A stretch of 64,000 nt of DNA, from positions 717,751 through 781,750 of the forward strand of contig MU004242.1 in assembly GCA_010405405.1 (NCBI GenBank), given 5' to 3'. A model generated the notes under the pieces. It was not told the origin of the DNA. It did not search any database and worked only from the letters and a program-made list of their open reading frames with translations. Both the position numbers and the translations under genes were made by a program. This DNA is from Microthyrium microscopicum. Its lineage: Eukaryota. This document shows, piece after piece, positions 1-59,293 of this stretch (position 1 is the stretch's first letter; the number at the start of each line of letters is the position of its first letter).

Positions 1-659
1 TGTATACACTTACAACGAAGTGTCACCAACAGTAACAGTCTGATTCTGACAAAGACCGCTCGAAAATCCAATAGGCTTCGGATCACCATACCTGCCAACC
101 CACACCATAACCTCATACTTTGCACTTGCATCGACTTGAGCAGCAGCTGGATCTTCATCCGCGAACATGTCCCATGCGACGTTTGAGACCATGCCCGTAA
201 TCCGGCTATCCAGGTCCTTGGCTGGCGCCGAGATCGACCATGATGCCGAGAGAGTGACAGCGCTGATGTCGGAAATGACTATCGGTAGCAGCTTGGGCTG
301 GAACTTGACGTGCGGGTAGGAATGAACCGCGTTCCGATCACTGGGCCATTGCCAGGTGGCATTGAAAGCGGTGGAGTAGGAGTTTACCTGAAGATGTCAA
401 TAGTGCGCGTGATTTCACGCGTGAAGATGCGTACCGATATGCATTGGAAGCCTTGCGGAGTGGCATTCCAGGCGTTTGCGATGACTAAAATTCAATTAGC
501 ATGCTCTCTCTTAGACATGAACATTGGTATCATACAGATCAATTTGTTATTGTCAGAGGGAATGGAACCAGTTGGGGTGCAGATGGTGTTGTCGGGATTG
601 GGCACAGAAGCGGCATATGAGGCACAAAATAACAGAGCTCCCAAGTAAGGAAAGACCAT
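1..659 (-). CDS. Secreted glycoside hydrolase family 12 (endoglucanase/xyloglucanase), 3' end outside window
   Basis: Signal peptide MVFPYLGALLFCASYA. Splicing GT-AG introns (about 485-535 and about 388-434) gives ..IFIANAWN..FQCIS-VNSYSTAFNATWQW..VHSYPHV..NVAWDMF..YEVMVW, which are typical GH12 motifs. A further GTAAG donor lies at position 13. Confidence 0.8.
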
Positions 660-13725: not shown

Positions 13726-13992
13726 CCTGATATCCCAAATCTGCCTTATGAAAGAAACCTTATTGTGTACCCCACATCAATACGGGTTGCCCCTGACAAA
13801 CATTGGTTCTCAATTCTCAATCTATCTTTTTATCTGAAGTCTGATAGCCATCTCTTGGAGCTTTTGCGATTCCCAGGCAGCGTTTTCGTATTGCACCATT
13901 AGCTGGCACCCAAACGTCGAAGACCACAATACTTCAGATTTTCAGGTCATTCAATTCTAGCAATCATCAAAGAACATTTGGCGATCATAAAG

Positions 13993-16719: not shown

Positions 16720-16725
16720 AATTTT

Positions 16726-17143: not shown

Positions 17144-17487
17144 AAGGCAATTAATAAAGTCTCGATTGGTAGATATACGCAAGTATCGTTGAAGCTTTTA
17201 GGACGGTGACATATATTTCATAATTCCAAGCAGACTGAACTACCTCTTGAGGGTTTCTGAACATCAGTGAACAATTAAGCTTCTTTTATGGACAGGTTTC
17301 GGGGTTTTCTGGTTCATAGAATGACACGACTGATATCATAAATTGGTGATTCTTAGACCGGCTTACTGACGTGTTGGAGGCCCATGATATCAGTGTAATA
17401 CTTCAATCAATGTGCCTATCCCTTGTATTCGTGATGCGTTAATCATTTATGGCCAATTGTGTATGAGGCAATGGTAGCAGCAATTGT

Positions 17488-18596
17488 TCACCATGGAAGC
17501 TGAAGAGGAATTGGAAGCTTGTCCTTTGGTCCGATGGTATCCTCAGCAGTTCCAATGTCTGCAGCGCCCCTTGGAGCCCAGTACGTTCCTGTTTTGGAGA
17601 TATCAAAAGTCTCAATCCAATCAATCAAAGATTTTGCAGCGACATCAGGTGTCACAGCTATTTCGAATCAGCCAACACGTACCCAGATAGATAAAGAGAG
17701 TGGACGAGGTCAACGGCATGGCAAAATAAAGGGTGTACTCCAACAACTCTGATGGCTACCACCAGCGCTGCTAACCAAGGTGCTTTACTTCCCATCGTAT
17801 CTAATAAATGCTCCCAGCCCGAGAGCCCTTGATGGGAAGTAAGGCACTCGACAACAGAGCGTAGCGTCTGGGCACCATCAGAGTTGATGGGAGTATGCCA
17901 TTTATTTCGACATGCAGTTGGAGGTATTGCAGATTAACTTACCTCCTCCTTCATCCCAAAACTTATCAAATCCCACCCCCTTGGTCATTTCAGTCCGCAT
18001 GAAGCCTGGATGAACCGAAACCACAGCGATACCTTGCTCTTTCATGTCCAAACTGAGCAGCTTGTTGACCATGTTTAACGCCGCCTTGCTCGCATGATGA
18101 CCATAATTGCCACCACCCTCCGATTCATGCCTCAACGTGATGCTGCCACTCTCTGAGCTGACCAGAATGACCTTTGAATCTTTTGCAAGTAAACCCGCTT
18201 TGACTAGCTTTTGGACTAGAAAGACAGGGCCAATAGCTGAGGTTGTGTACATTGTGACCTGTGCTGAATGTTAGAATTAGAGAATTCTGGTTCGACCATT
18301 TTGACAACCTGCGCATCCCAGTCGGGCTTGTCAAAAGTCTCCAAGCCAAAGAAGCCAGCGGTAACAATAAGTGTGTCGATGGAGCCTTTGATATCATTGA
18401 GACCTTTGATAACCTCGTCGCCTGCAGCAGGTGTACCGATATCGACACCAGTGATCCATTTGATGCTTGGGTCGCTATCTTTGGGAGCTGCTTTGCGACC
18501 TGTGCCGAAGACTGTATTCGAGCTGTCCTTGACGTATTGTTCGGCCAGTGATCTCCCAAGGCCGCGGGTTGCGCCGACGATTGCGATGTTTGGCAT
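17488..18596 (-). CDS. Short-chain dehydrogenase/reductase (C-factor/CsgA-like), 3 exons
   Basis: IAIVGATRGLG Rossmann motif, GHHASKAALN, VHPGFMRTEMT. Introns 18259-18308 and 17658-17942 give a last exon AVTPDVAAKSL..YWAPRG..LQLPW*. Confidence 0.9.
17658..17942 (-). other. 285-nt structured (fold-back) intron, member of the ~54-bp-unit intron family
   Basis: GTAAGT..CTGAT..TAG. Inverted repeats 17744-17755 / 17875-17886 (12/12) and 17780-17796 / 17831-17847 (16/17). Confidence 0.8.
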
Positions 18597-19103
18597 TGTG
18601 CCGAGAGTCGAGCTTTGATGGACGAAATACAGCGATGTTGCAGGAAGAAGGTTTCGTAGTAAGTTGTAGTAGGCACAGGGACGATGAAGAGCTAACATGA
18701 TATACGTCACTCCATGACACCTTACTCCTGCATTCCACCAAGTCGATTGCTAATTCTTGGTAAGCTTATCTGGGCCAGTGTAGTACTCTCTGGGCCAGTG
18801 GATACCATCCATTAGACGAAGCATAATAAATATTCCATTCTTCTTCATAAGACATCTTGGGAGGAATTAGTGCTTAGAAGATATAAAATGATTGGAACCT
18901 GCTCAGAACTTTGCCACCCCCCTACATCCGATGTCGGGTAGTATTGGATCCGGCACCATTTCTAATCTGTCTCCGCCACAGAAAATAGTTGATCGCCTCA
19001 ACATTTTTATAGGCTGGTCCTCACAAACAACCACATCTGGGATCAGAGGCCGTCGAGCCAAAGGCCTGATCACCACTTCATCACTCCCTAGTTCCTGGAT
19101 TTT

Positions 19104-20309
19104 ATGGCACCAACTCGACTGAACCTCCAGCGCCTACCCGCCGAGATTGTCGAGCTCATCTGCGAACATCTTGAGGATCACGACTTGATTTCTATCCGGA
19201 CTGTGTGCACGGCACTGTATTACCATAGTGTAAAAACTTGCGGATACCGATTATTCAGTGCTATCGGCACGAATCTTTCCAGAAAGAGCTTGGAAGCAAT
19301 TCGGGAACAATTTTCAAACTCCAGGTTCTCACCCTGTGTACACCATCTCAAAATACAGAGCAGTTGGCTTGAAAGAGCGAATGATCTAGGCCGGGGCTTC
19401 ACATGGAAACGAACAATATGTGGACGCCTCGAATATGACAACGAAGGGATCAAGGCTCTTGAGCAAATTCTTTTCAATATCTTTCCCAATTGTAGATCGT
19501 TCTCATTCGCGCCAAATCTGGATGATCGAGAACGCATTCCAACCGACGTAAAAGATGTCATCATGACTATGGACTGCGTTTCCATAATCTTCCTGATTGG
19601 CACTGAAACCGGGATGCCGATTCACGGATTCCATATGATTAGATCGAGATTCACATATCTCGATGACCTACAAGAATACGCGCCCGGATTTCTCGTGGAT
19701 ACCTGGTATCGATGCCCGCTCCGCCTGCTCGCAACCAAACCATTTAAAGAATCATGGAGTCATCTCACGGATCTGAGCTTAGCATTTGAGCTATCAAGCA
19801 CATCATCCTATCGCGCCCCAGACTGGGTCAAAGCCTTACTGTCTGGTACCCCTAGTCTGACATCGCTGGATCTCACGCTACATAGAATAGGCATCATGAT
19901 GCCACAAGACTTCCTTGATGTCTTGTGTTCCCCACGACGGAAGTATAACCTACGAACACTCGCACTGTCATCGGTAGGTATGCCATGGGAAGATCTTCTT
20001 CGACTATTGGATGCGCACCGCAATTCACTTACAAGTTTACAACTTCATCACTCGTCATTTCCGTATCGTCGGGGCCATGTTACGCTGCTTAATGAATTGG
20101 CTTCGATGCTTCCGCATCTGGACTTTATGAGTTTTGGCTGGCTGTTCCCAACATTGGATAACGATGAACAGATCTCCAGTGAAGACCGACAGGGGGTTAC
20201 CATATGGAGTGGAATGCGAAATTCGGAGCGTCAAGTTTTCAGAACTAGCTACTCTGGATCTGAAATCGTCAGAGCGTGTGGTATTATGCTTAAAGCTCTA
20301 GAAGAATGA
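19104..20309 (+). CDS. F-box-like / LRR-like hypothetical protein
   Basis: Intronless 401-aa ORF. N-terminal LQRLPAEIVELICEHLEDHDLISIRTVC motif; C-terminal LxxLxL repeats. Confidence 0.7.
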   Translation: MAPTRLNLQRLPAEIVELICEHLEDHDLISIRTVCTALYYHSVKTCGYRLFSAIGTNLSRKSLEAIREQFSNSRFSPCVHHLKIQSSWLERANDLGRGFTWKRTICGRLEYDNEGIKALEQILFNIFPNCRSFSFAPNLDDRERIPTDVKDVIMTMDCVSIIFLIGTETGMPIHGFHMIRSRFTYLDDLQEYAPGFLVDTWYRCPLRLLATKPFKESWSHLTDLSLAFELSSTSSYRAPDWVKALLSGTPSLTSLDLTLHRIGIMMPQDFLDVLCSPRRKYNLRTLALSSVGMPWEDLLRLLDAHRNSLTSLQLHHSSFPYRRGHVTLLNELASMLPHLDFMSFGWLFPTLDNDEQISSEDRQGVTIWSGMRNSERQVFRTSYSGSEIVRACGIMLKALEE

Positions 20310-20396
20310 AACGCAGTTCAAAACAAGACCGATCAATTGCCAAATGCGCTACTAATACACTACAATCTGCCACGTTATTACCACCCCCGTTGCAGT

Positions 20397-21239
20397 TCAG
20401 ATCACGACAACCGCTAAAGCCATGAGAGCTACGGACCCTAGCGGTGCCAATGAGCCCTTTGTGGCGCCAGAGAATTGTACCGCCTTCTGGCCATTGGTAC
20501 CTGTTGCTTTAGGCGCATTGGAAGCCTTTGGCGCTCTAGAAGCCTTGGGCGCCTTCGAAGCCTTTGCTGATGCCGACGCTTTCGCAGTGGGAGAAGCCGA
20601 TGCGCCAGGTGCTGGGGGAGCAGCCGCATTAGAATAAGCCTTGATGACCTTGTCGAGTGTTTCCGTGATACCAGCAGTCTGCTGCTTAGCCAACGGTCTC
20701 GCCAATACAGGGATTTTCTCCGACACCGAATCGACAAGATCTATCGAAGCAGATCGTTGCTGCTTCAATTGCGCCAGCACAGCGTCATTCAAGCCTGCCA
20801 TATTGACCACTGGTTGAATCTCGATCAGATCATTACTCAACTCATCCAAACTCGTTTGCAGTCCTTTAGCTGCGCGCTCAATGGCCAATGAGCCACCGAT
20901 ATCTGTGTCCCGCTCTTTATCAACATCGGCTTTTGCAGACACAAGCATCTTTCCTAGCATGTCGGCGTTTGTGGCAACGGCGCCTAAAGCTTGCATGTTG
21001 GTTGCGCTGACTTGCTTGACGGAGCCATCGAGAGCCATAACAGACTCTTGAACTGTGCTGAGTGCTTTCATGATTCCTTTGGCGGAGATGGCGCCACGGA
21101 TACTATCTTGGGATGTTGCAACCATCTGTGGGTCTGGTGCGCCGGGCATGGTGGCGGCCAGCGGAGGTGCTGCTGCTTGAGCGTTGACGGAGCCATAGGC
21201 GGCGGAGAGGAGAAGAATGAGTGTAGATTGGAGAAGCAT
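20397..21239 (-). CDS. Secreted/GPI-anchored cell wall protein, HsbA / Mp1p-like helical domain
   Basis: Signal peptide, amphipathic helical core (..VLAQLKQQRSASIDLVDSVSEKIP..), A/S/K/P-rich linker and hydrophobic C-terminal GPI-like tail. Confidence 0.75.
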   Translation of the reverse strand: MLLQSTLILLLSAAYGSVNAQAAAPPLAATMPGAPDPQMVATSQDSIRGAISAKGIMKALSTVQESVMALDGSVKQVSATNMQALGAVATNADMLGKMLVSAKADVDKERDTDIGGSLAIERAAKGLQTSLDELSNDLIEIQPVVNMAGLNDAVLAQLKQQRSASIDLVDSVSEKIPVLARPLAKQQTAGITETLDKVIKAYSNAAAPPAPGASASPTAKASASAKASKAPKASRAPKASNAPKATGTNGQKAVQFSGATKGSLAPLGSVALMALAVVVI

Positions 21240-22245
21240 GTTTATCAGAGATTGAAGTGAATGTGATTTAAAAGTGAGTGTTTAGCTGGAGACTGGATGA
21301 ACTACCTGGTCTCCCAGTGTTGGGAAACAAGTTTTTATATACTTTATCAATAGCATCTTCACATAATGTTTTGAATCCTCTTCATTTATCTAATTATAAA
21401 GCATGCGGACTTTGACTCAGGAACTGAATATGGCCGTATGAGGAAATACATCCTCTCGTGTTGGCAAAGGTTTGAAACTCGATATCCGGGGGTCATCGCT
21501 TAGAAGAGATACCGGTAATGTTGATGGTCACAAACATCCAACGGGATAACTTCAGCTAGCTGGACTTATTGAAGACCATGCGCACATATGCCATGATAGC
21601 ATAATGACATGATCGAAGTCGTCCAGGACTGTTGTTTTATACTCTTGAATAGCCGGGGCATAATTTGAGATTTCGAATACACAGAGTTAGCCAAAAGATT
21701 ATGTTGATAGCTTCATGCTTAAAGAAATCTACGGCCAAAGAAGGCTGAAACTCTTCGAATATGTTCTTAATCCATAGCCTCTGTTGTAGATTTAATCACC
21801 AAGAAGTGTTGAATCGTTCATTCTATGGATTCCGCCAGGGCTTCTAGAACCCTTTAACACATAAGCTATTCTTACAGCGAAACATGTTTATATAGACTAT
21901 TGAGACGAATTCTCAAACTGTTTACACTTGACACCTGTAACGCCAATATTTAAGCGAAGTCTACCACATACCAAATAATTTGTGAATATTGCTGCATCGT
22001 GTAATGTAGTGATCTTGGTGCCCTGAAGTATTCAGGAGTTTATGGCCCAAGCTAATAGCATTATGCGCAAAGACTGACGGTATGTAAGAATGAAAGGGAT
22101 AGCAGCGTATTAGAACATAATTAAGTAGCAAACTCATTATCATAAGAGAATAGAATGATTAGAAAGCTCAAAAGATGTCAACCATCTCAAGATAATCAAT
22201 CTCTGAAAGCCAGCCAGCACTGGCAGTGCTCACCGACTTCAGCCT

Positions 22246-23406
22246 TTAAGCATACTTCCGATCCTTAAACCCTGCAATAAGCTCCACAGTCCCATCCCCA
22301 GACTCCGCATACTTCTTCGCCGCAATCTCAGGATTCAGCTGAATCGTCTGCTTAGCCTTAACCCACTCTTCCATCGTTACTGGCTTCTCAAACCTGCTCT
22401 TCACGCCTGCCGCATTCAACACTGGGCTATCCACAATAGGCTCCAACACCACATCGTTATGTGGTCGTGAGAAGTATAGGAGTCCTGTACGTTCGTATTC
22501 CCACTGATCCTTCGGTGGCGCCACAACACGGTGGATGCTAGATTTGAGCCATCCGCCCGTGATGTGTGAGATGGTATCGGCCAGGTTCACAGTGATCGTG
22601 CCAGGCTGTGCGGAGACGTAAGTCCATTTACCGTCATCGCCGAGAATTTGTAGCCCGGCGACGGGTTGGCGGAAGAGAAGGGTTACGGTCCCGAGATCAG
22701 TGTGGCCGCCGGAGTGGCCGAAACCGCTGGCTTCGTGCTCTTCAGGGGTACGTTTGTGGTAGATCATGTAGCGGAAGTGATCTTCGCTTTTCTTGTCATA
22801 GGTGTGTTGGCGGACTAGATAGTCTTCATCTGGCAGTTGGAGGACAATCGCGAAGAGACGCAGGAGGGGGAGAACGACATTGGAGTGGAGCGATTTGGAG
22901 AAGTGCTCAATCTCAGGTAAATGCGCATTTAGAAGGTCTGGGCGTGTGTATTTTCCTTCAAAGTCTGGGGTGAACTTTGGGATGTTGAAGATTTCGACGG
23001 CGTCGACGGTAGAGCCGTTCTTGCTGCGTCCTGCGCGGCGCCAGCCGTTGTAGTTTGCGGTTTCGTACTTGACCTCGTGTTTGGCTTTCTCTTCGGTGGG
23101 GAGTTCAAAGAAGTGTTTGGCGAGCGTGAATTGTTGGTCGATCTGGGTTTGGTTGAGGCCAAAGTTCTTGACGTAGAAGAAGCCGACGTGGTGGACTGCG
23201 TGCTCGAGTTGTTTGGCTAGTCTTTCCTTTCCGCCTGGGCGGTCATAATCTTCGAGGTCGAGTGTGACTAGCTCTGCCCATGGAAGCTCTTCTTTTGTTT
23301 CTGGGGGATGGACATATGGAGTCAAGTTTTCGTAGCTGTATTGAGCTGGATTCTCTACAGGAAAGGAGACCTGAGGTTTGGCGGTTTTCGTAATGACAGC
23401 AGACAT
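22246..23406 (-). CDS. 2-oxoglutarate/Fe(II)-dependent oxygenase (IPNS/DIOX family)
   Basis: LVTLDL..VGFFYVKNFG; the HTD...H facial triad (GHTDLGTVTLLF, SSIHRVVAPP). Confidence 0.9.
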   Translation of the reverse strand: MSAVITKTAKPQVSFPVENPAQYSYENLTPYVHPPETKEELPWAELVTLDLEDYDRPGGKERLAKQLEHAVHHVGFFYVKNFGLNQTQIDQQFTLAKHFFELPTEEKAKHEVKYETANYNGWRRAGRSKNGSTVDAVEIFNIPKFTPDFEGKYTRPDLLNAHLPEIEHFSKSLHSNVVLPLLRLFAIVLQLPDEDYLVRQHTYDKKSEDHFRYMIYHKRTPEEHEASGFGHSGGHTDLGTVTLLFRQPVAGLQILGDDGKWTYVSAQPGTITVNLADTISHITGGWLKSSIHRVVAPPKDQWEYERTGLLYFSRPHNDVVLEPIVDSPVLNAAGVKSRFEKPVTMEEWVKAKQTIQLNPEIAAKKYAESGDGTVELIAGFKDRKYA

Positions 23407-24696
23407 TTTCGAAGTGTAGAGTAGAAAGATTTTATGATGTGTTCAGTGATTGAGTTTGTTGCTTCCCTTTGTAGCTCTAAATGCTGTTAAGTTTGATATC
23501 TCTACCCACATTTTTCGTAATAGCTGCCCCTGTATGTCACCATTAATTGCTTACCAAGTCATGCTCAACAACCAATATAGTTCAAGATGTAGAAAAGCAA
23601 AAACATGCTAAAAACGGGTATCGCGGCTATAGTAGCCAGAAGGTTCAGCGAATTCGGCGATGGTGAGATATCTTGGGCATTGCGTGATCGAAGACTATAT
23701 CACCAAATACAAGCTGTCAAAATTGTTCGACAACACATTATTGAGTCTAGTATCGTGCCTGTGATGTTTCCAGTGATTGATAGCACTCGAAAGAAAATGC
23801 TGCCATTGATCTGTGCGTGACTTTGATCTAACATTCCATCAAAGGACGCGCTCGAGAACATTTCCTGACCTGGATGAGAGTGGGGCCGATCAGTTGATCC
23901 TCGAAGTACATTTGGTCTCTCAACACGAGCAATGCTGCACGAAGTAGATCGACCATCTGGCCTTTGTCGTGATTCCAAGAACTAAAGGTGATACTGCTCC
24001 AGTCGTCCGGTCAAATCGTGAGCGCCAGTTTCTGCAACCTTGAAGAGCCTTAGAAAAGAGGAGGCGCATATTCGGGGGCCCACATTGGCCTGTATTGCTC
24101 AAGAAAGATGGCCAATGCCTGCGAGATAATTCGGTCTTATTCTCTTCCCCAACGTTTATGCTTTTTTATGCCGCGCGTGCATAGGGACATATGGATAAGC
24201 CATCTGGCATGTTCGCAAGTGTATGCGATAGGTTTGAAGTCATGTCGTTGGAAGAATGTCCTTGATTCGAGTCGTCATGCAGGTTTTCCGCGTTACTATA
24301 TAATGATTGTTTAAGCTTGAAGGAGTCTCAAATGCATGGTAGACCTGGTGACTTGATGTTTCCTCTGGCAGATTCTAGAAGGTTTGTCGAGTGTCGTGTT
24401 CTTAGATTTCCATACTTGAAACTTTGAAGCGCTGCATGTCGGGAGCATCATGGCAAGGTCTAGCTGAAGCTCTTCCAACTAGAAATTCCCAGGGATGCAA
24501 ACTTTTCAAGGCATCTTGCCTAAATAATCAAGCCCTGGGAGCCATTAGCGTATAGCCCATCAGTGATGTTCGAAGTACTTACAGAATAGTCGCATCGGAT
24601 GTATACGTTCGACTTGAGCCCGACATGACCACTATTCCTATGACTCTTGACCCTTCCAAAAAGATAAGGGAGTCCATGATCAAAATTCAAGAATCC

Positions 24697-25320
24697 TCAA
24701 CTACCCTCACCACCCTTCTTATCCCCATTAGCATCAAAGCCCAGCGCATCCAACTTCTTGATCAACTCATTGATCTGAATAACCTTATTAATCTGTTCCG
24801 GCAGTAACGGCGCCCCCTGACTTTCCTGCTTGCTCTTCAACTCTCTCGCCTGTCGTAGCTTTTTCGCCAACTTTTTAGCCTCCTTCTCTTTATCATCCAC
24901 CTTAACCTCTTCCTGTTTCTCCCCCTTACCCTCATCCTCTACCACCTTATCCCCACCCTTCTTCACCCCCTTCCCTTCTGAATCCCCATCACCAGTCTTA
25001 GCGGCGGCGGCAGCTTTTTTCCGCGCCTCTCTCCGTTTTGCATTTTTATTTGCTGTGGCACCACCCTTGTTTTCCTCATCGACAGCCTCGGCGCCTATGA
25101 CTCCGCCTTTGGAGCGGTTGGACCATGCTTCGGCAGTGCGGTTGCGGTAGACTTCTACATCTTCGGGTGGTCGATAGCCTGGGCGGATTTTTATCTCTTT
25201 GCGGAGGGAACCGTCTGGACGAACGGACGCGGGGATGTGACGGATGCCGTTTTCGTCTGTTGTGATGCCTGACTTTGTTGACTGTGTTGGCTCTGTCAGT
25301 GGGGGAGGGGATGGTGCCAT
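24697..25320 (-). CDS. PYM1: WIBG/PYM Mago-binding domain protein
   Basis: RHIPASVRPDGSLRKEIKIRPGYRPPEDV Mago-bind motif; C-terminal KKLRQARELK..LLPEQ..K. Confidence 0.85.
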   Translation of the reverse strand: MAPSPPPLTEPTQSTKSGITTDENGIRHIPASVRPDGSLRKEIKIRPGYRPPEDVEVYRNRTAEAWSNRSKGGVIGAEAVDEENKGGATANKNAKRREARKKAAAAAKTGDGDSEGKGVKKGGDKVVEDEGKGEKQEEVKVDDKEKEAKKLAKKLRQARELKSKQESQGAPLLPEQINKVIQINELIKKLDALGFDANGDKKGGEGS

Positions 25321-25619
25321 TTTAGTGGAGGGGGAGGGATGTGGTGAGATTTTTGGAAAGGGAGGATTGGCGCTTTATGAGAGAGGGGAGTCCGAGGATT
25401 CCAGGCGTAGAATAAAATAGGGGGAGAAAATATAAATGTTGGGAAAGATGTAGAGTGGGTTTGATGAGATGAAGTTGAGGCTCGGAAGTTGCCGCACCAT
25501 CTCCGAAAGCCAAGAATCTTCAATCTTGTGGTCCGCAAGCAACTTCTTTACCCAACTCAAGCTCGACCACCACACCATATCTCCGCGTCGCCAGACATCT
25601 CACCAGCTCAATCGTCACG

Positions 25620-26049
25620 ATGAGTGTAAGTAATATCACTTTGAGTCAATTTAAATAGGGATAAGGCGCTAACATTGGCGTTATCTAGCTCTACACATCC
25701 ATCTACAAGTAAATCGCCCTCCGCTCCCACCTCAATCGCCGGCCTCAATCGCGACTCAAGCTAATATACACGTCTAGCACTTTCTTCCGGAGTAATGCGA
25801 TGATGCTTACTACCGTATTTGGCGCGGCATTTGCTTTTCAAGTGTATGTTGTGGTCTACAAATACTGGTGCAAGGCTAATGGGCATATAGAGTGATGGAC
25901 ACCTCAGCAGACCGGATATGGGACAACGTAAACAAGGGCGTATGTTATACAAGATTATCAGTGTCGATCTTGGACTGAGACTGACGATGGAATAGCGGCA
26001 ATGGAAAGATATCAAGGCGAAATATGTCACGAAGGACGATGAGGAATAG
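25620..26049 (+). CDS. QCR9: Cytochrome b-c1 complex subunit 9, 5 exons (not in ORF track)
   Basis: Spliced reading MS|LYTSIYN|TFFRSNAMMLTTVFGAAFAFQV|VMDTSADRIWDNVNKG|RQWKDIKAKYVTKDDEE* with four GT-AG introns; WD..NKGRQWKDIK is the Qcr9 signature. Confidence 0.9.
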
Positions 26050-26750
26050 GCAGTTATGGGAAGCAGAAGACAGTGAAGCAGGCTCGGTGATTCTCAGAGC
26101 GATTGTCAATACAACTTGATGTACCATAGGGGAGTAACTAGCAGACAGTGTTTGCATGAATCAACGGATTAGACTGGCCATGTCTGTTGCCAACAACCAT
26201 CTTTGTACATGTAGCCAGTGATTGCTGTTCAGCGGTTGGAATGAGACATTCTGAACAATGAAGGATTGGCCCTATGTTAGAAGCAGGACAAACCCTAGAA
26301 TTGCTGCTTGTTGGCTATCAATCAGGGGCAATATCCTGTTCAAACAGTCAACACAGTGCAGTCTGAAACTGGTCAAAGTATAGGGACCGGTAAAATGCAG
26401 GTATTTATTGACCTGGGGAAGTTCATACAGTGAGACCGAGGCAAGTGCATTGTAGCGTGACCAGCCCCGCCATGGTCATTGCTGCAGTTTGGTACGCGCC
26501 TGCTCACTTACAAGTTACCGTACCTGTGTGCTGTGAGTCCAGGCTGTCACTTCCTACCATAACTTGCCATCCATGCTCACCCATCGGGATACCTGTACAG
26601 CTCCTGGAAGCCTTCATGACCTTCTCCCAAGTCATTAAACCTTAATCACTTACTACATACAATATACCTCTACTTCATCCGCCTACTCTACATCCCTCCC
26701 TGGTATACACATCATTGCTCGCTACACATCCCCTCCCGCCCGCCGGCACT

Positions 26751-29700
26751 ATGCATGGCCCGCCGATAAACCTCGAGTCTCTCGACCTCATTACCTTCCT
26801 ACGAGTTCTCCCTGCCGCCTATAACTTTAGATACACTGAAGCCGTCCACAATGTCATCCTACAGAAGCTCTTCATAAGCTGCATTGGCCCCACCGGTAAG
26901 TGCCAAATCACATTTCTTGACGATATTGGATGAAATACAATACATCTCATCGCCACTGCATTCGATGGTTACCATAGAATGCGCTCCTAGTCCAGTGCTA
27001 TGGATCCCACCGAATGCGGCGGGCGGCTCAGGCGTGTTGGCTCTGATCATAATCTGTTACTAACAACTTCCAGGACAATACAGCACTCTCTTCTTCCCTA
27101 ACAATACTCCTCCATTCGACCCTGACGTCAAATGGTCTCTTCGCGAAGCTCAGGGCGCTATAGAAGGCGCCGAGTATACAGAAGCTGCCCGCGGTACTGC
27201 TTGCGGCCATATATTTCGACCGGGCGAGGCGAGTTATCAATGCCGCACATGTTCTAGCGATCCAACATGTGTGCTTTGCGCGCGCTGTTTCGATGCCAGC
27301 GACCACGATGGACACCCTGTTTATATTCACGCTAGTGATGGGAATTCAGGATGCTGCGATTGTGGCGATTCAGAGGCCTGGAATCGGCCAGTACACTGCG
27401 GCATTCATTCTGAAGACGAAAGTGCACATGGTCATAAAGACAAGGCAAAGGTATCTGAGCTACCGGCGGAGTTGCTTGAGACTATACGTCAGACTATTTC
27501 AAAGTCACTAGACTATATGTGTGATGTGTGGAGCTGTTCGCCAGAGCAGCTCAGAGCCAACAAGTCCAAAGATAGCATTTTGGAAGATGAGTGCCTATCA
27601 AGACTGGCCAGTGAAGTTTACGGAGGCCCGGACTTGGCTGTACAACAATCTGGCCAAGAAGTTGAGTACGCATTGGTACTTTGGAATGACGAAAAACACA
27701 CCGTGCAAGATGTCAGAGACGCTGTGGCAAGAGCATGTCGTGTTAGCAGCGCAGAAGGGCGGACTCGAGCCGATGAAATTGACAGAGTTGGCCGTACCGT
27801 TGTCAAGTACTCCAAAGACATTAGCGAACTGCTCCGAGCGGCTGTAATCCTGGAACAACCCAAACTCTCAGTCACCATTCGGTCCTCGCGAGACATATTT
27901 CGCGAACAGATGTGCGGTTCTATTGTCGAGTGGATTCTCGATGTCTCCGGTTGCGCTGTTGGCTCAGACGGCAAAATACTTAAGCAAATCATATGCGAGG
28001 AGCTCATGAAAGAATGGCGAGTCGGCAGCTTTGCTCATCACAAGATGGTGGGCCAAGATGGCATCTACGATCATGACAAGGAGGAGGTTCAGAAAGATCT
28101 TCAAGAGAACCTGGGTCCGTATAGTACTGGTTTGATCCAGAGACTCCAACATGCCTGGGGTGCCGCAGCTGATGTGCAAGATGATTCAGTAGACGACGAT
28201 ACTGTAGAGGATCATCCGCAAGATGCCAACGACGCCATGGATATAGACACCCCATTCATCCCCTCAAGTTCTCATGATGTAAATGATAACATGTCAGCAA
28301 GCGGCGTTGGTGAGACATCTGAAGGTCAAAACACTCCTGCCGCGAGCCAGAGTTCCGAAGGCGCTGCTCGTTCCAATAATGATTTCATGTTAGAAGAAGC
28401 TGACAGCAACGATGCCTTGCTGACCATACCTCGGACTCCTGCTGCAAGGGTTAAGAAGACCCCGAAGCCACCGAGTTATTGGCGAGATATGCCAGCAGGC
28501 TGTTACGCTCCTGGCCTCACTTCACCTGAAGAAAATCTTCGGAGAAGAGTTCGATTAGATTGGCTCATTCTGTATGACCTGAGAATGTGGAAACAACTTC
28601 GCATCGACCTTCGAGAAGTCTTCATAACGACACTTATCACCATCCCCAAATTCAAGAGGCTTCTTGCACTGAGATTTGCTAGCGTCTTCACAGTGCTTGC
28701 CGAGCTACACCTCATCGCTGATCGCGAGCCAGATCATTCCCTCATCTTCTTATCTCTCCAACTCCTTACCGTTCCCTCCATTACTACTGAAGTTATCGAG
28801 AGAGGAAACTTCCTTACCAACCTAATGGCCATAATCTATACTTTCCTCTCAACTCGTCAAGTTGGCTATCCCCATCAAGTTGATCTCTCTGCTACTCTGG
28901 CTATCGACCAAGGAGTTGTGTTCAATCGCAGAGCGCAAACGTTCTACCACGATATGCGTCATATGCTTTCCTTGGAGATCGTTCGTGAACGAATACGAAT
29001 TGAGCCTCGGTACCTCCTTCAATTCCTTGATATCGCCAAGATCCACCAAGGGATATGCCCCAATGTGCGAGCTGTTGGCGAACACTTGGAATATGAAATG
29101 GAAGCTTGGATGAGTCTGTCAACAGTGATGACAGAGGTCATGAGGCTCTGTCGTTCCTTTGCAGAATCGTACTACATCCAAAATGAGGATCACTCTCCAA
29201 ACTTGCAAGGCGCTCTACGAACCGCAGCAGGTGTCGCAATCATTAATTCGCTGGGTTGCGAATTGTCACGCTTTGAGCAAGGAGAGATCAAACAACTGGT
29301 GCAATTTCATAGCCTGGGACCATTCGAATTTGACCATCAACATGCACCGCCATACTGGACAGTTCGATACAAGGTTGCCGAAGAACCTATGAGCTGCTAT
29401 CATCCGCTACACTATATCCTGTCCTGGCTGCTAAGCGAAGCACGATCAGAGAGCGCCGACTATATCAAAGGCTTGCTACACTTTTCGGAAAGTGATCTTC
29501 AACCAATGATTACATCCAAATCTACATACAAAAAACTCAAGGACGTTGGCGATATTCCCGGCAACTATCTCTTGGCCATGTTCGATCTTCCCATCCGTGT
29601 TTGCGCCTGGTTGGCACAAACTCGCGCTGGAATGTGGGTACGAAATGGTCTCTCGTTGAGGCATCAGATTCAGCAGTATAAGAGTGCTAGCCGAAGAGAG

Positions 29701-32700
29701 CTTACATACCAACGAGACATCTTTTTGGTCCAAACAGCTTTCGTCATTTGCGAGCCAGGAACTGTTTTGGCTACCTTGGTCGACCGCTTTGATCTGTTAG
29801 ATTGGGCACAAGGCAATTACGAACCACATCCGGCACGAGATGAGGCGCAGACTATCGACGTTGCCGAGGAGTTCATTCATCTTCTCATTGTTATCCTATG
29901 TGACCGACTAAACCTTATCGTTGGTGATCGCGAAAAGCTTGCCGAGACCATGACCAAACGGGAGCTCATCCACGCTCTCTGCTATAAGCCTCTTTCGTAC
30001 GCCGAGCTAAAGAAATATCTGACTGAGCGTGTGAAGGAAGCCGACGATCAAGGCATTCTCCAAGAGTTGACTGCCTACAAACCTCCCGAGGGTATGACAG
30101 ATCATGGCACATTCACACTGAAAGATCAATATTTTGAAGAGATTGACCCATACTTGTCATATTTGACCCGCAATCAGCGCGAAGAGGCCGAAACAGCTTA
30201 CCGGAAACATTTTGCAAAGAAACTCGGCAAGGATGTGTCCGAAATCGTGTATGAGCCTAATATCGTGCCGATCGAGTCTGGTTTGTTCAAGGACATTCAC
30301 CAATTTACAAGAACGCCACTGTTCGCACAGGTCATCTTTTACTTCATTCAGTATGCTATGATGGCGCCAAACTTTGCACCCGATGTGCAGGCGACTAAGA
30401 TCGAGCAACTCTTCCAGTTCGTTCTACAGCTTACACTTGTGGCTATTGTCTTGGACGACTCTACGGAGTTTGTGGAGGAGTTCGATGTGGTCATGGATGT
30501 TGATGATCCTTCTGGAGAACTGAATGCGCCGCCAAAATACCTTAGCTTCTGCAAAATGATGTTGGAGAAGAAAGCGACCAAAGTTGTCTCAAACGACACT
30601 ATCGCGAGTGCTCTTCGACGAAGTATGGAACTGGACCATTTGAAATCTTGTGCGCCACGCGTCAAGGCGATCTTCCAGCATCTCCAGGAGAAACGACCAG
30701 ATGATTTCCGTACTTGGATGACGAACCTTAACCTTCCAATGGATGTGTTTGGCCAATCGACCCAAGCCAATGATGCAGCTGCCAAAGAAATAAAGAAGAA
30801 GCAGGCTCTCGAGCGACAGGCCAAAGTGATGGCACAATTTAAACAACAACAAGCTTCATTTTTGGAAAACCAATCTCTGGACTGGGGCGAAGATTTTGAA
30901 GATCTTGATGATGATGAGATGACCGTTACTGCGCATGAAAAGGTGACTCGTTTTCCATCCGGCTCTTGCATTCTTTGTCAGGAAGAGACAGACGACAATA
31001 GACTTTATGGTACTTTTGGATTCATCAGCGAGAGTCGAATGTTTCGAGACACTCCCATTCGTGATGCAGACTGGGTTAACGAAGTACTCGATACACCTGA
31101 AAGTCTCGATCACGAGTGCGTTGAGCGTCCATTCGGAGTTGCCTCCAAAAACCGCCGTGTCATTCGCAAGACGGGAACTGACGGCAAAGTCATTGAACTC
31201 GAACGACAGGATCTAGCCAAAGGATTTCCAAACACATATATCTCTCCGAATCCGGTGAGTGTGGGCTGTGGCCATATCATGCACTATACTTGCTATGAGG
31301 TCTATGTGGCTGCGACTGCGAGGCGCCATCAGCAGCAAATTGCTCGGCATCATCCAGAGACTATTGAACGGCACGAATTCTTGTGTCCACTGTGCAAAGC
31401 GCTTGGCAATACGTTCTTGCCAATTATCTGGAAGCCGCAACCTCTACAGTATCCTGGCGCATTAGCTGGTCCTGAGGAGGACTTGGAGACGATGATTGCA
31501 GGAGTGACTGGCCAACTCAACGATTCTTCGTACTTGCAGCACGCTGAGACTGCGCTCAAGAGCTACGCAGAAAGCAATTTCGTGCCTGGATTGGCTGCGC
31601 AGGTTCAACCTAGTTTGATGGAGCTCAAGAATAAAAGAAGTCAGATTCCTCCACCGATACCAGGATTCCCAGGCCGTATCATGGACTTTGACAACCCGGT
31701 GGAGAGTTTGAGCAATATTTTGAGTCGACAAGATAGTCTCTCGTTCTCAGCTGCTAGCACGCCAATTGAGTCTCCACGGATATCAGGTGCCCTCAACGTA
31801 TCAGAACTGCGAAGAGTATACGACACACTAGAAGCCGCACTCAAACTTGCAGATCTCCAATATCCGAACAGCTACAGTACCAGCGAATGGGACGAATTTG
31901 GCGCTCTGATCTCTGCACTTTCCGGATCGATAAAAGCAGCTGAGATCGCCCAACGTGGTGCCGCTTCGCCCAATTTGGACGCCACCTTCATTGAGAAGAT
32001 TAGCTCCCAATCTCTTATGCATCTGAGAGTGCTGAGCGAGACTATCATGTCATTCCTTGCAGTCAATCTCATGAGCAACTCTACCAACAGCGACTCTAGC
32101 CACAATTCCAGCCAGTTCGAACTCGAGAGCCGTCTTGAACGACATATGGGAAGTCTGTTCCTACATTCTAATGATATCGAGGGCGCATTCTCGAGGTTTC
32201 CGGCGTTACTTGCGCAAGATCCATTCGCTGTCTTCACGGAACTCACGCTTTGCCCTGTGCCGGATTTTGATCTCAAGTTCCACATGAAGCTTTTCTATAT
32301 GGCCGAGATTGTAAGGGTTATCGTGTCTTTCTCAACCAAGACCGATGAAGACCCTGATATCAACGACGAAATCCTCAGCATCCGAACACGCCCCAGCGAG
32401 CCAGCCCCTCCCGCCTTCCTAGAACTCGTCAAACTCATCGGCGAGCACCTCCACGGTGGCCTAGGTAGTTACGTATCCTCCCAAGCCCTCTGGATGCTCT
32501 GCCGAAAATACGCCCTCCCCTTTGTCCGCAATTCCGCCATTCTCGTACATATCCGCTACGGCATCGACTTTCCTATCCCCACCACACCTTCTTCCCTATC
32601 TGAACTCGCACGCCTGTCCACACTTCTAGATCTACCCTCCCTATCAGATCTAGTCTCCGAGTTCATTACTTCCCCTTCTGCGCGGGTGATGGGTACGAAG

Positions 32701-33548
32701 TGGGCGCAGCATTACACCGAGCAAGACGACATTATAAATCTCGCTCATCCTGCTATCTTTGAACTCGTAGGCTTGCCGAAGAACTTTGATACATTGCAGG
32801 ATGAAGTTATGAGACGGAAATGTCCTGCTACTGGACGCGCGCTCTGGGATCCGGCGATCTGTCTACTTTGCGGCGAGATTTTCTGCTCACAGAGCCAGTG
32901 TTGTACGAAACCAGCGACTGATGGGCATGGGAACACTGGGAGAAAGGTTGGTGGTTGCTGGCAACATCGTGTCAAGTAAGTTTCCCTCAAAACCCCCTTT
33001 GCCCACACCATCCAACCGCTCGACAAAAAATAAGTGGACGCGCTCCCATCAAGTGCGGTGTCTACCATCTGCTGCGCTTTGGCACCGGTGCTCTATTCCC
33101 CTTGCCAATGATTATATACCGTTGGATTATCCTTCGAGTACGCTGGGTGATAAGGCATTTTCTCGTTATGAAATGCGATGGTAGACACCGTTGTCGATGG
33201 GAGTGCGCCATCATTTACGCCCCTCATTCCCATCCTTTCCCTCCTATCCTATCCTTGTTTCTTTACTAACAATCTCACAGATGCGGCGGCAAAGTCGGCA
33301 TTTTCCTACATATCCGCAAATGCACAATACTGTACCTGCATGAAGGCAGCGGCTCATTCACCGTCGCTCCCTATCTTGACAAATTCGGCGAGGCAGATCC
33401 CAGCTTGAGGAGCAATTTGCAGCTCTTTTTGAATCAGAAGAGATATGATAGTATTTTTAGGTCTGCGTGGCTGATGAGCCAAATTCCGAGTGTCATTGCG
33501 AGACGGTTGGAGGGGGAGATTAGCACAGGGGGATGGGAGACTTTATAA
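26751..33548 (+). CDS. UBR1: N-end rule E3 ubiquitin ligase UBR1, 3 exons
   Basis: UBR box (CGHIFRPGE..C..C..CDCGD..C..H), ClpS-like WNDEKHT segment, WVRNG, RING (CILCQE..CGHIMH..CPLCK), C-terminal YLDKFGEAD..GWETL*. Introns 26896-27073 and 32976-33280. Confidence 0.95.
26896..27073 (+). other. 178-nt UBR1 intron 1, member of the ~54-bp-unit intron family
   Basis: GTAAGT..CTAAC..CAG. Unit GCCACTGCATTCGATGGTTACCATAGAATGCGCT..CAGTGCTATGGATCCCACC with a 54-bp period (26952/27006). Confidence 0.8.
32976..33280 (+). other. 305-nt structured (fold-back) last intron of UBR1, member of the same family
   Basis: GTAAGT..CTAAC..CAG. Perfect 14-bp inverted repeat 33056-33069 / 33177-33190, extended by 33040-33050 / 33196-33206. 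Confidence 0.8.
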
Positions 33549-34058
33549 ACGTTGTGGTATTGGGTTTCGGTTGGGGTGATGGGGGTAATGACTGATGATG
33601 ATATTGTTTGATAGATTGGGGCTGGATGAATGATTATGAGATAGAATGCAATGAGTTTTACGTGGGTATTATTGGATTTACTACCTATGGATTCACTACA
33701 TACACTACCACACTTTGCATTTCTGTTGTTGATTCAAAGACCAATGTACTCCCAGCTGAGTCGATGGGGTTACATCAGATCCGTAGTTGTTAAGTAGCAA
33801 CTGTGGCAGTTGGCGACCCGATCTGAGGCTTCAAAGAATAGCGCGGAAATGTCTACATCCATACCACAGGTCTAATGGCTGGGGTTGTTTCCTGCGATCG
33901 ATTGGAAGGTTCTTTGTTTTGGGACGTGTCTTTCTCGCATAGCATCCATTCAAGTCAGGGGATTGCGTGCAAATCGGGTGTCCGCTTGACAGATAGTCCT
34001 TTCCAAAGGTTTCGATTAATATGTCAGCTCTTCCGAAAACACGGACTCCTTGAATTCT

Positions 34059-35498
34059 TCATCCCATCTCATGAACGTTTGAAGCCGGTCCACGGCCAGA
34101 AGAAGCAACCTGGTGAGGTGGTTGATATGGAAGTGCTTGTGGAGGACTATACGCCTGCCCAGGAGCTGGCTCACTGTGCGTCTGTCCTGTGACATCTGGA
34201 GACACCAGCGGCGGCGTCGCCAAATACGCCTGTCCGGGTGCTGGTGTACCGCTAAGCTCGGAAAGCTGTGTTGTACTATAATTATGTCCCAAGAGCCCCG
34301 TCTGTCCTGTTGACTCTGGAGATATTGCCTCTCGTGTGCCTGTATATGTCGTCTGTCCAGCTTGTGCCTGGCTATATGTTTGAGCTGGCCAGGTCGCACC
34401 CATAGGCGTTGACGTCTCCATCGGTGCTGCGTATGGGTTTACTTGCACTGGACTGGATCCCATGTTACCCTTGCTGGCAAAATATTCCGCCTGTGCTCCA
34501 CCAGCGGGAAAGTAATTGAGCGGCGCGACATTGGTGATACCAACAGGTTGTATGCCGGCACGCATCGCATTTTGCTGGTCGATGGCGCGGAGGTTGCGTC
34601 TGTGCCGTCGACAGCATAATATGACGATGACGATTGACGATATGTATCCGATACCAAGGGCGACGAAAATGATTATCAGAGGGATCAGCAAAACGGCCGT
34701 GGAGGTTGTCGAGCTGCTATAGTCATAGCTGTTGCTGCCACCGCTATACAAAGAGGTTGTGTATTTCCCAGACGAGCTTGATCGGCTTGTGACGGCATAG
34801 TAGGGAGCGGTGGAAACGTAGGCTGTTATGTAGGAGTAGCCTGTGTATAATGTGTTGCGGATGGTCGATGTTACGGGTGTCATTTGTGATTTGGCGTCTA
34901 TTCCACAGCCATAGCCGGTTACTCCTTTTCCAGGATCTGTGTATTGTATTAGTACATCATGAGGACTAGAGGAACCGATCTGACTTACATGTGTATGTCT
35001 GACAATATGGCTCTGCTGCTGCAGAACAGACAAGATTCAGAGTATTGCTGAGGCAACTTGAGCCGCACTGATTGCCATTGTATTGAGACCTGTCGTAGCA
35101 TTTGCTGGCGAATTCACAGTTCGTGTAGCCGCCATAACAGCAGCCTTGAATATATAGGCTGGCAGTGTAGATTGCACAGGATCCAATCTGGCAAGAGAGG
35201 ACCGAGCCTAGAGAGTTTGTTAGTATGTTTACGAAGCAAAATCCGATCTTGATATTTAGGACTTACTTTCGGACGCCGATGCATCCCAAATCCAACCACA
35301 AGTGTCTGCTGAAGCATATGACCTTTTAACTAATGGATTGCGAGAATGATCTGGTGCCTCTGTTGGCTTCGGAGATACTGAGTCCTGAACTGCGAAATTT
35401 CGTGCGACTATAGTCGGTTCTGGCCCAGGAAACGCGATAGATGCTCCTCTTTGGGCAAGAGTCAACAGACTTAACGCGTAAGAAAACCGCGAAATCAT
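34059..35498 (-). CDS. Type I membrane protein (signal peptide, Cys-rich ectodomain, one TM, P/Q-rich tail), multi-exon
   Basis: MISRFSYALSLLTLAQ.. start, TCGW followed by Cys-rich exons, TM VLLIPLIIIFVALGIGYISSIVIVILCCRR, and a low-complexity cytoplasmic tail. Exact internal splice sites are only partly resolved. Confidence 0.7.
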
Positions 35499-36363
35499 TG
35501 GAAATTCGCGGCGGACAAGATGAGATCAATGAGCGTGAGTTGAAGATAATGACAGAAAAGAATGAGCGAATATCACGTTAGCGGTTGAATTAGAGGAGTG
35601 AGCAAAAGCGCCATGGAAATGTTAGACAAAGCCATTCCTGTTGAAGTGCATCAAATATCACGAAGTGTTCGACCATTTTCTGCTTGCCAAGAGGCTTGGT
35701 GGTTGAGAGGATTGAAGATTGGCTGGGAGTGGTGGTTGAGTCTAGGCCGTGGCTTATGGAGATGGATATCTTTGGCTGCTGCATTTAGATCAGCAAGAAA
35801 GCGGAAAGATTGGGCTTGATACAAAACAAGATTAAGCAAAAGAACGACAGGGGACAACACGAGCAAATTCCCACCTCTGCGGCTCTGCCACCTTCCTTCC
35901 CCCGGTCTTCCAACTTCAACGCTCCATCTCCATCACGATTCACCGACAACCTAGACGATTTATATCGAAAACTTACACCACAGGCATCCCTTGGACTTGT
36001 ATTGTGAAGCACCGTTGGAGAACAGATTCATCAATTACATATTGGTTCATGGAAAGCACTTTGATAGGTGCATCATGTTTCTTTGACAATTGACCTCGTT
36101 GTATTTACCCCTTTCTGGCATGTCATGGTACAGCAAGAGCTCTGTTCTCAGAACTACCTACCTATTGCCCGTCTCCAAGAAGATATGCTAAATGTCCAAG
36201 TCGCACGCCCTATAAACATATTGACAAAGCTAATGATCTCGCGAAGAATCATTTTGAATTCCACACCACTAACTACCGCAGCACCGTGTCTATTGGAAAC
36301 TTGTGACTCCCTTTCCCATGCTGATCTAGTTCTACTCATTGATCGGCTTTGCTCTTGTCATTA

Positions 36364-38740: not shown

Positions 38741-39545
38741 TGTTTGAGTGAGGTCGTACTTTGGAGTGGGATGGAGAAGAAAAGGCGATCGCAGCGTTAA
38801 TGGAAGCCTTATAGCTTGTGAATATCAGCAAATTGTGCTTTCTATTACCTGGACGGTTTGCCTGGTTTCTTTCAGCGATGACATCGCATCTTGATTGTAT
38901 TCAGCGAGCCGCAGCTGGCTTTCCACAACAGGCTAATAGTTCGGGACTGTACATGGTTAGAGACAAGCGGATACCATCTGACAGCAGAACCACAATGCAT
39001 CTTTTGGCATGCCATCCAAAGGTTGATTGCATTGTGTGGAGTTCGGGGTGGCAAATTGCCTGCTTTGTCGTCCCAGATCTCGTTTTTCCGCTGCCAGCAC
39101 CCGTCGGATGCCCAGGGAGCTATGGCACGCTGGTCATATTGATTGAATGTAGAAATGGCTTGGGCCAAATGACCAGGTTCAATGCAAATTTGTCTGTCTG
39201 TCATCCTACTGCGTCAAGTTCTCAACCCATAGGCTCGATGCCTCTGTAATTCGTCCAGGAATGGCACATGAGGTAGCAAAATGATAATCGGAGTAAATAT
39301 ATCAGAAATGGTAATTAAATGAATGAAAACATTATTATGGTTTACAAATTGCTCAGATCGCGGTCGTCTCACGGTCCGCCGGCTAAAGAATCATTTGACA
39401 CAAATGTAGCAGCATCTTTCTCGAGCGGACCAAACATGGCACCTGTTGAGCTGTTGAAATGATTATTTTGCTCATCTCTCTTTTGTTTGATGCGGGAGAA
39501 ATCATTCCGGTAGTCTGCCCTTTGCCAGTCAACCTCCCCTTCCTG

Positions 39546-57998: not shown

Positions 57999-59293
57999 AT
58001 GAACTCAAATCACATCAAAGACCACGAAATGCAAGCTACCGCGGCTGGTCCGCAAGATGTAGTGTTATTCACACTAGGTCAGGGGATATCAGCAACCTCA
58101 GCTCACTTCATGACATGGTAATTACCCTGAATCAGAGCAGTTCTGACGAAATCCAAAAACAACATATCTCCCATCGCACTCGATGGCTCCCATAAAACCT
58201 GTTCTTGTTCGAGTGCTGTGGGTCCCATCAGATGCGATGGCACCCATAACACTTGAACATTATTTTGACCGGGCAAGGCTAAACAGTCCTTTCAACGTGT
58301 TGTCCAAAATAATGATCTTATACTAAAACATTTTAGGTAAGCCTTTTCTAGATTATACCATATTTCTTGACAACATTCAACAAAATCAAAAACAGCGTTG
58401 CTCCCATCGCATTCGATGGCTACCATATGATGCGCTTGTGATCGAGTGCTATAATTCCCACCGCACTCGATGGCTTCCATCAGAAAGCACTTTTATAATC
58501 TCTACTGACCAATTCCAGGGATGCCATATACAATGACAGGGACGAATCTCGCCGGTACAAAATCCAGAGCTCGTGCAATGTAAGCCTAAAAGATGGAGCC
58601 ATTGAATTCAAGGCTGGCACTGCGTTCACGAAAGAATCTCTGTATTCCAAACAAAAGAAACACGGGTTCTTGCAGACGGGCCCCCCCGGACGGCACGCAT
58701 GGCTCATTTGCGTGGGTATAGAAGGAGGCCCCATGAACGGACCGGAGCCACCGAGGATAGATCTTGAGCTGAGACTTGTGAGTGTCTAAGCAAAGAGCAC
58801 TCTCTTCTTCATGTACTAACTCTTCTAGGAACCAGGCGATGACAAATGGCGCCGCGCAGGCAGCAATCTCATCACCTATAAGTCCATAACCAAGGCGTTC
58901 TGTCACGAAACAAAGCTACGAAAGCTCCTGGAGGTCACAAATTTTATGGATGGCGAATTATTTGTGATGCCAATCAAAGGTCCGATCGAGATTCCTGACA
59001 ATGGCTTGCTTGAGTTCCAAGTACACAATCGAGGCTTCGTGTCCAGGGGTTTGAGAGGACAGCATGTCGGCCGTGGACCAGTGATAGTGCGATGTGTTGT
59101 CAATGACGACCTGCCAGGTACTTATGAGTTGTTGCATGAGCATCTCAAACTTGGGGGATGGCATTTCGAAAGTTGGGGTAGCGGAGAGACTTTTGGGGAG
59201 CCCATTGTCATTGATACAAGGAGCTCATATGGTCCTAAAGTCCCCAAATCTGTCAGATTTGTACCACAATCAGGGGCAAGTGGTAGTGGATGA
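57999..59293 (+). CDS. Hypothetical protein, 3 coding exons (57999-58117, 58519-58777, ~58829-59293)
   Basis: Exon 1 ..HFMT-TG|GTAATT; after CTGAC..CAG at 58518 the frame stays open (WDAIYNDRDESRRYKIQSSC..LELRL). A short GTGAGT..CTAAC..TAG intron then joins in frame to the 58946-59293 ORF. Confidence 0.65.
58118..58518 (+). other. Two abutting introns (58118-58336 and 58337-58518), each carrying tandem ~54-bp family units
   Basis: GTAATT...TACTAAAACATTTTAG|GTAAGC...CTGACCAATTCCAG; units at 58170/58224 and 58403/58457. Confidence 0.65.

Follow-up and report, generated by a model that had tools for sequence, protein, structure and literature searches.

Diverged look-alike introns of Microthyrium microscopicum as probable copies of a degenerate introner-like element family

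The origin of new spliceosomal introns is a long-standing question, to which introner-like elements (ILEs) are the main fungal answer. The ILEs of Dothideomycetes, reportedly described by van der Burgt et al. in 2012, are said to have been known since then, and transposon-derived introners were reportedly the subject of Huff et al. in 2016. Recursive splice sites with zero-length exons are known from the long introns of Drosophila. In the available parts of two reports (PMC3609843, PMC4457414), ILEs are presented as canonical spliceosomal introns that occur in many unrelated genes, are two to five times as long as regular introns, are predicted to fold stably with compensatory changes, undergo degeneration of both length and sequence and occupy gained positions into which they integrated seamlessly. 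The same parts report the presence of two ILE copies in a single gene and of ILEs where other fungi have regular introns.

Sister introns and sister stwintrons of the Hypoxylaceae (Fekete et al. 2021, PMC8469720) are described, in the part of that article at hand, as proliferating, internally symmetric and seamlessly integrated elements without target-site duplication. They are functional on the coding strand only, their symmetry decays in older copies and 'cropped' forms have become shorter through central deletion (same part of PMC8469720). Reverse splicing is the favoured but unproven model for both ILEs and sister introns, as far as the available text of PMC3609843 and PMC8469720 goes. Transposon-derived introners are, in the accessible portion of Gozashti et al. 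2025 (PMC12130899), repeat families whose insertion gives rise to introns and which abound in fungi. Furthermore, the available part of PMC3609843 mentions repeats inside regular introns in Rhytidhysteron rufulum, in Fusarium graminearum and in Sclerotinia sclerotiorum.

The whole stretch of DNA analysed here, called the window, measures 64 kb and comes from Microthyrium microscopicum. In this species, which we take to belong to the order Microthyriales, a sequence-only reading had presented UBR1 intron 1 (26896..27073) and an intron at 58337-58518 as near end-to-end sister introns of unrelated genes. The explanation proposed below, that the two stretches are diverged copies of one ILE family, is probably right as a whole. 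The window provides a compact one-family test set, with a seamless new intron, confirmed by transcript-like contigs, in a conserved single-copy gene, a copy at an ancestral position of that gene and a stacked pair. With it, one can ask what moves, the whole intron or a module formed by the hairpin, and whether insertion favours splice junctions.

A family of seven copies and its splicing

The family was searched over the window with a profile of three short copies and a separate profile of three long copies. Together, these two profiles define seven copies, and neither gave a further match in the window below E 0.05; weak matches at 33711-33802, 39076-39148, 39662-39729 and 40452-40511 (E 0.15-2.6) were, on inspection, attributed to chance and discarded. 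The short forms (178-219 nt) are UBR1 intron 1 (26896-27073, + strand, 178 nt, phase 1, with a continuous frame) and the two units of a head-to-tail pair. The first unit of the pair (58118-58336, + strand, 219 nt) was recognized by nhmmer and alignment, its removal being predicted from the frame, and the second (58337-58518, + strand, 182 nt) is by alignment the unit most closely related to UBR1 intron 1. The long forms (265-305 nt) are the 3' intron of UBR1, which contains a long hairpin (32976-33280, + strand, 305 nt), an intron of an MFS transporter gene (15946-16210, - strand, 265 nt) and an intron of a short-chain dehydrogenase gene that has the best-preserved hairpin (17658-17942, - strand, 285 nt). 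Pairwise z-scores divide the family into a short and a long subfamily, and the copies of the window are identical at 66-79% of aligned columns. They measure 178-305 nt, against 47-69 nt for the eight regular introns of the window.

According to Pfam, the hosts are UBR1 (twice), an MFS transporter and a short-chain dehydrogenase, the host of the pair belonging to no family; the MFS_1 profile is matched from 1 to 108 before and from 113 to 304 after intron 15946-16210. Six of the seven copies make up introns (by prediction for the pair), all in the sense orientation of the host gene, and the removal of each of these first six keeps a long reading frame. The seventh, at about 55447-55677, lies in a 5'-UTR intron or is intergenic. 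It is placed on the - strand (E 1.2e-8 with the short-copy profile; E 1.8e-12, + strand, with the long-copy profile), its orientation being ambiguous because the core is palindromic. When 55372-55690 is treated as an intron, only 26 open codons and no ATG are left upstream, and no relative of 69-223 aa was found for the adjoining ORF. This copy may lie outside any intron.

The long copies are predicted to fold into one long imperfect hairpin. For 17658-17942, the minimum free energy is -108.5 kcal/mol (z -5.6) and none of 200 shuffles is as stable; the z-scores of the three long copies range from -4.5 (32976-33280) to -6.2 (15946-16210). These copies have 66 predicted pairs in common, 11 of which show changes on both sides. 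The folds of 26896-27073 (z -1.7, 14/200 shuffles as stable) and 58337-58518 (z -2.5, 4/200) are only marginally above chance. Both keep the left arm of the hairpin and only part of the right one, and they are read as products of internal deletion.

Many other contigs of the source DNA run match the family cores (34 at place 17874, 7 at 26984; depth is not copy number). Other genomic copies lose their similarity to 17658-17942 at 17920/17921 and at 17711, where they have loose ends; these break points fall at about intron positions 22 and 232 of 285, i.e. at the borders of the hairpin. Family-wide homology fades 20-37 nt inside the donor, and the internal hairpin is the part best shared across copies. 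In 1.0 Mb of UBR1 loci from 80 relatives, no match to the family profiles was obtained, and Rfam gave no family at gathering score over the whole window.

Splicing was followed with reads placed on 20 kb of the window (15500-35499). Runs X1, X6 and X7 are DNA; run X5, labelled RNA only as a guess, was treated as transcript-like on the ground that introns are skipped at GT..AG in its contigs and in those of no DNA run. The fifteen joints listed for X5 contigs all have GT..AG or CT..AC ends, and none was present in X1, X6 or X7. All four copies located in the 20 kb are skipped exactly at GT..AG by these transcript-like contigs (joints 15945/16211, 265 nt; 17657/17943, 285 nt; 26895/27074, 178 nt; 32975/33281, 305 nt), and a single X5 contig record covers the UBR1 main exon (27073-32975). 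X6 and X7 contain identical low-depth pieces, one of which spans UBR1 intron 1 with 0 differences; these pieces come from the same organism and therefore provide no presence/absence contrast. X6 is labelled as a different organism, and its low-depth contig 26838-27228 matches the UBR1 intron 1 region with 0 differences, so that a small amount of this fungus seems to be present in that sample. By far the highest X5 depth belongs to the contig of a gene at 25505-26171 with four short introns (47-69 nt), which reaches 6704 versus about 300-440 for its neighbours.

The window also includes, at 6000-14000, an AT-rich block (20-25% G+C versus about 48% elsewhere) bounded by 285-nt direct repeats (6322-6606 and 13437-13721, 88% alike and 7115 nt apart), with 65-nt tandem repeats at 12043-12237. 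This block looks like a mutated, possibly RIP-degraded, LTR retroelement. Three repeats spaced by 18 nt at 20513-20573, in an ORF with an HsbA (hydrophobic surface binding protein) domain, are probably a coding repeat. The VID27 gene (51651-54363) is covered by two overlapping open frames (51651-53504 and 53491-54363), which implies that near 53500 there is either a short intron or a change of frame; the named proteins that match VID27 are 64-68% identical and come from two classes.

The sister units, the two UBR1 introns and the head-to-tail pair

The coordinates and lengths put forward for the two sister units are correct (178 nt and 182 nt, both GTAAG...CCAG), and the six strings quoted from them are all found in the sequence. 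In a shuffle-tested global alignment, the two units are significantly alike, with 122 matches in 190 columns and a score of 128, versus 17.3 +/- 9.9 in 1000 dinucleotide shuffles (z 11.2). This likeness is strongest in the core (44/55 matches, z 20.6, a score reached by 0/2000 shuffles), and similarity beyond it, as had been claimed, was found in the 5' part (26/36 matches, z 5.8, 2/2000 shuffles) and in the last 25 nt (20/25 matches, z 5.2, 1/2000). On the 3' side, the likeness is limited to these 25 nt, which contain the branch point and acceptor; the segment between them and the core shows no significant likeness (z 1.2, 361/2000 shuffles).

As a control for shared splice signals, the ends of the two units were compared with those of the eight regular introns of the window, defined by transcript joints. 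The score of the last 30 nt (27) and that of the first 45 nt (26) both exceed all 76 control comparisons (maximum 22). For the other family pairs, end similarity is no better than among regular introns. When 150 nt of flank were added on each side, the local alignment covered 14..179 of 178 and 23..183 of 182, without extension into the exons. Homology thus begins 14 and 23 nt past the GT and ends at the AG, plus one shared G. The host genes are indeed unrelated, UBR1 having four Pfam domains and the other host belonging to no family; the flanking exons share nothing. The term 'near end-to-end sister introns' describes a real similarity but suits only one of the partners fully, 58337-58518 being an intron-shaped unit that has no 5' exon and is not free-standing.

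UBR1 consists here of exon 1 (26751..26895, + strand, from the ATG to the donor), deduced from sequence reading and from a colinear peptide in orthologues, and of a main exon (27074..32975, + strand) that carries the zf-UBR, ClpS, UBR1-like wing and PRT6_C domains of Pfam. It was compared with 80 loci containing UBR1 orthologues, taken from metagenome contigs of relatives and representing 60 distinct N-termini. The orthologues are 52-63% identical over 275 residues, the closest relative, at only 63%, setting the limit of the gain test. The position of intron 1, whose presence in orthologues had been proposed as a check, is interrupted in 0/80 loci. In 80/80, the frame is open for at least 49 codons upstream of the start of exon 2. 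The orthologues have a Met 44-53 codons upstream of this point, their peptide is colinear with exon 1 and they share with it an LF.S..G motif at equal spacing; in 19 loci, the exon 1 homologue found by tblastn abuts in the same frame. The coding sequence is colinear across the site, with no codon gained or lost. Some of the metagenome contigs could derive from transcripts; among the 61 loci extending to the 3' site, 49 contain an intron there and are therefore genomic, and none of these has intron 1. As 0/80 loci are interrupted and the coding sequence is colinear, all 178 nt, including the GT, branch point and AG, are extra DNA. Judged from these comparisons, UBR1 intron 1 is a lineage-specific seamless gain.

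The 3' intron of the same gene differs in its position. Intron 32976-33280 splits a Lys codon (AA/A) just before a conserved Cys. In the same Lys codon and phase, an intron of 48-163 nt (median 63) is present in 49 of 61 relatives, 12 being without intron; the position is therefore ancestral. The intron is about 240 nt longer than is usual in relatives, and its homology with the other long copies runs from about position 38 to about position 279. By reading of the alignments, its non-family ends sum to about 36 + 26 = 62 nt, near the median of relatives, and the copy would thus look like an insertion into an old intron. Alternatively, a whole unit was put in at the old donor and a deletion followed; the stacking of unit upon unit that this alternative needs does occur in the window (58118-58518). 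Of two metagenome loci whose flanking UBR1 peptides are identical (L027:13138-13311 and L029:6323-6333), only one has a 163-nt intron at this 3' site, due either to a transcript-derived contig or to a presence/absence polymorphism. Similarity confined to the central ~70 nt of an intron at an ancestral position, the pattern that had been named as contrary to a mobile whole intron, is not what intron 1 shows, but the ancestral position is true of its sister 32976-33280. The proposal that the mobile unit is the whole intron including its splice signals is supported in the case of UBR1 intron 1 and is only one candidate for the family as a whole.

In the head-to-tail pair, a complete unit ends and a complete unit begins at 58336/58337. 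The base before 58337 is the last of the AG of 58118-58336 (junction TTTTAG/GTAAGC), and the two units abut with zero exon between them and are not nested. The first exon of their host gene spans 57999..58117 (+ strand, from the frame), or ends at 58063 in the public model (protein P0121). From the ATG at 57999, a continuous frame requires the removal of 58118-58518 (401 nt) in its entirety. P0121, which bears the species name Microthyrium microscopicum and matches the following exon at 100% identity, has ...QDVV directly before DAIYNDRD, which implies a donor at 58064 and an acceptor at 58518, so that both units are removed as one intron. The donor is either GTTATT at 58064, which is weak and belongs to the P0121 model, or GTAATT at 58118, which by family alignment is the element's own. 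Both keep the frame, differ by 18 codons and give an intron of 455 nt or 401 nt, respectively. A donor-disrupted stwintron at 58118-58518 was ruled out, as no internal intron splits an outer donor. Among the three short copies, the two tandem partners show the lowest mutual similarity (z 6.1 versus 11.5 and 8.7), a relationship that speaks in favour of two separate insertions and against duplication on the spot.

Mobile unit and mode of copying

In the explanation preferred here, the copies would be spliceosomal introns in which a core able to form a hairpin is surrounded by the element's own donor, branch point and acceptor, and they would have multiplied into unrelated genes of this Dothideomycete. 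We infer copying through the excised intron RNA, which would be reverse spliced by the spliceosome into a transcript or DNA, reverse transcription and repair then completing the process. The hairpin would take part in copying, and the short forms (178-219 nt) would be internal-deletion derivatives of the long ones (265-305 nt). The head-to-tail pair and the copy at the ancestral position would result from insertion at or beside existing splice junctions. The best direct repeats flanking the units measure 2-5 nt, no more than chance (5000 random placements, mode 2), and no inverted repeat was found at the very ends of the units. Such seamless, sense-only and duplication-free integration fits the pattern of ILEs and of Hypoxylon 'sister introns' as given in the available parts of PMC3609843 and PMC8469720, and is likewise compatible with the unproven reverse-splicing model favoured for both. 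Against this ILE reading stand the identity of 66-79%, far from the near-identity that defines active ILEs, the fold of the pair 26896-27073/58337-58518, barely better than that of shuffles, the copy that is maybe outside any intron and the 0 introner families credited to the species in a 2025 survey. Against a whole-intron unit as the rule for the family stand intron 32976-33280, at an old position and with flanks that sum to an ordinary old intron, the fading of family-wide homology inside the donor, the ends of the copies, more alike than in regular introns for the two sister units only, and the status of 58337-58518 as the 3' half of a head-to-tail pair.

Intron 32976-33280 looks as expected under the strongest rival, itself unlikely, according to which the mobile unit is the internal hairpin repeat only, a foldback or MITE-like element without splice signals that inflates pre-existing introns, shared ends being mere splice signals. 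The site of 32976-33280 indeed holds an intron of 48-163 nt in 49/61 relatives, and its non-family ends (about 62 nt) match their median (63). The same rival would explain why other genomic copies stop matching 17658-17942 at the borders of its hairpin and why, in most family pairs, the ends resemble each other no better than regular introns do, and repeats inside regular introns are reported in three other fungi in the part of PMC3609843 at hand. However, UBR1 intron 1 has no precursor in any of 80 colinear loci, and its donor, branch point and acceptor thus came with the repeat. The rival also has to face the location of six of the seven copies in introns, although introns account for just a few percent of the window, and their uniform sense orientation, the ends of the sister units, more alike than in all 76 control comparisons, and the lack of flanking duplication.

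Clearly less probable is a DNA-transposon introner, i.e. a non-autonomous element moved by cut-and-paste, with splice sites provided in part by its target-site duplication. About 82% of classified introner families are inverted-repeat DNA transposons according to the available portion of PMC12130899, and the element does contain long internal inverted repeats; but these stop short of the termini, no flanking direct repeat exceeds chance, the integration of UBR1 intron 1 is seamless and all the intronic copies are in sense. Local events alone, namely a tandem duplication at 58118-58518 with gene conversion or segmental copying among a few introns and no mobile family, are very improbable. The two units do lie head to tail and duplications of introns within a gene are known in fungi at low frequency (PMC3609843, available part), but each tandem partner is more like the intron located 31 kb away than like the other, the copies reside in four unrelated genes on both strands, many more genomic contigs match and the flanking exons share nothing. 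Equally improbable is a core kept by selection as a functional, non-mobile intron-borne RNA (e.g. small nucleolar or hairpin-derived), which the 11 compensated pairs of the three long copies would suit but the lack of an Rfam family at gathering score in the window, the loss of much of the hairpin in short copies and the absence of the family from 1.0 Mb of relatives' loci would not.

Within the ILE explanation, the idea that the spliceosome itself aims insertion of the family at existing splice junctions is speculative and rather doubtful. It is based on one window in which there are a new intron, a copy placed right at the acceptor or donor of another with a zero-length exon between them, and an intron, ancestral in the class, that was entered or replaced. 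If true genome-wide, such targeting would directly betray reverse splicing as the step by which copies are made, and 'parallel gains' at positions of old introns would find an explanation as well.

Comparison with described systems

Like the ILEs of Dothideomycetes (PMC3609843, PMC4457414, in the parts available), the Microthyrium family consists of canonical spliceosomal introns of unrelated genes that exceed regular introns in length, have a stable predicted structure with compensatory changes and have degenerated in length and sequence. A gained position, with seamless integration, is found for 26896-27073, and an ancestral one for 32976-33280; these two copies share one gene, UBR1. The family differs from these ILEs by copies that are only 66-79% alike, i.e. 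by its degenerate state as seen here, and by its host, Microthyrium microscopicum not being among the ILE hosts described in the available parts of both reports. The same parts make no mention of a head-to-tail ILE pair without exon between the units. No published work joining this species with introners was found, the papers retrieved on the species and introns being unrelated by title and abstract.

The sister introns of Hypoxylaceae derive from an ancestral donor-disrupted twin intron and have inverted repeats that reach the termini, according to the part of PMC8469720 at hand. Compared by description only, those of Microthyrium are simple introns whose inverted repeat stops short of both ends, and the stacked units abut instead of being nested. 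Classified introners mostly carry terminal inverted repeats and target-site duplications (PMC12130899, accessible portion), neither of which was found at the Microthyrium units. The supplement of this 2025 survey, in its available part, scores Microthyrium microscopicum with 0 introner families (PMC12130899); a survey tuned to near-identical copies can thus score a species as introner-free despite the plain presence of a degenerate family. Repeats inside regular introns would yield look-alike introns with a shared internal block, as in 32976-33280, but would not explain the seamless new intron 26896-27073.

As in a recursive splice site, the AG/GTAAGC at 58336/58337 places an acceptor directly before a donor and, from its sequence, might allow removal in two steps; the difference is that two stacked mobile introns would be involved here, in a fungal intron of 401 nt (or 455 nt). 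Globally, the family is filed as a degenerate member of the ILE kind, itself already known, with two unusual arrangements.
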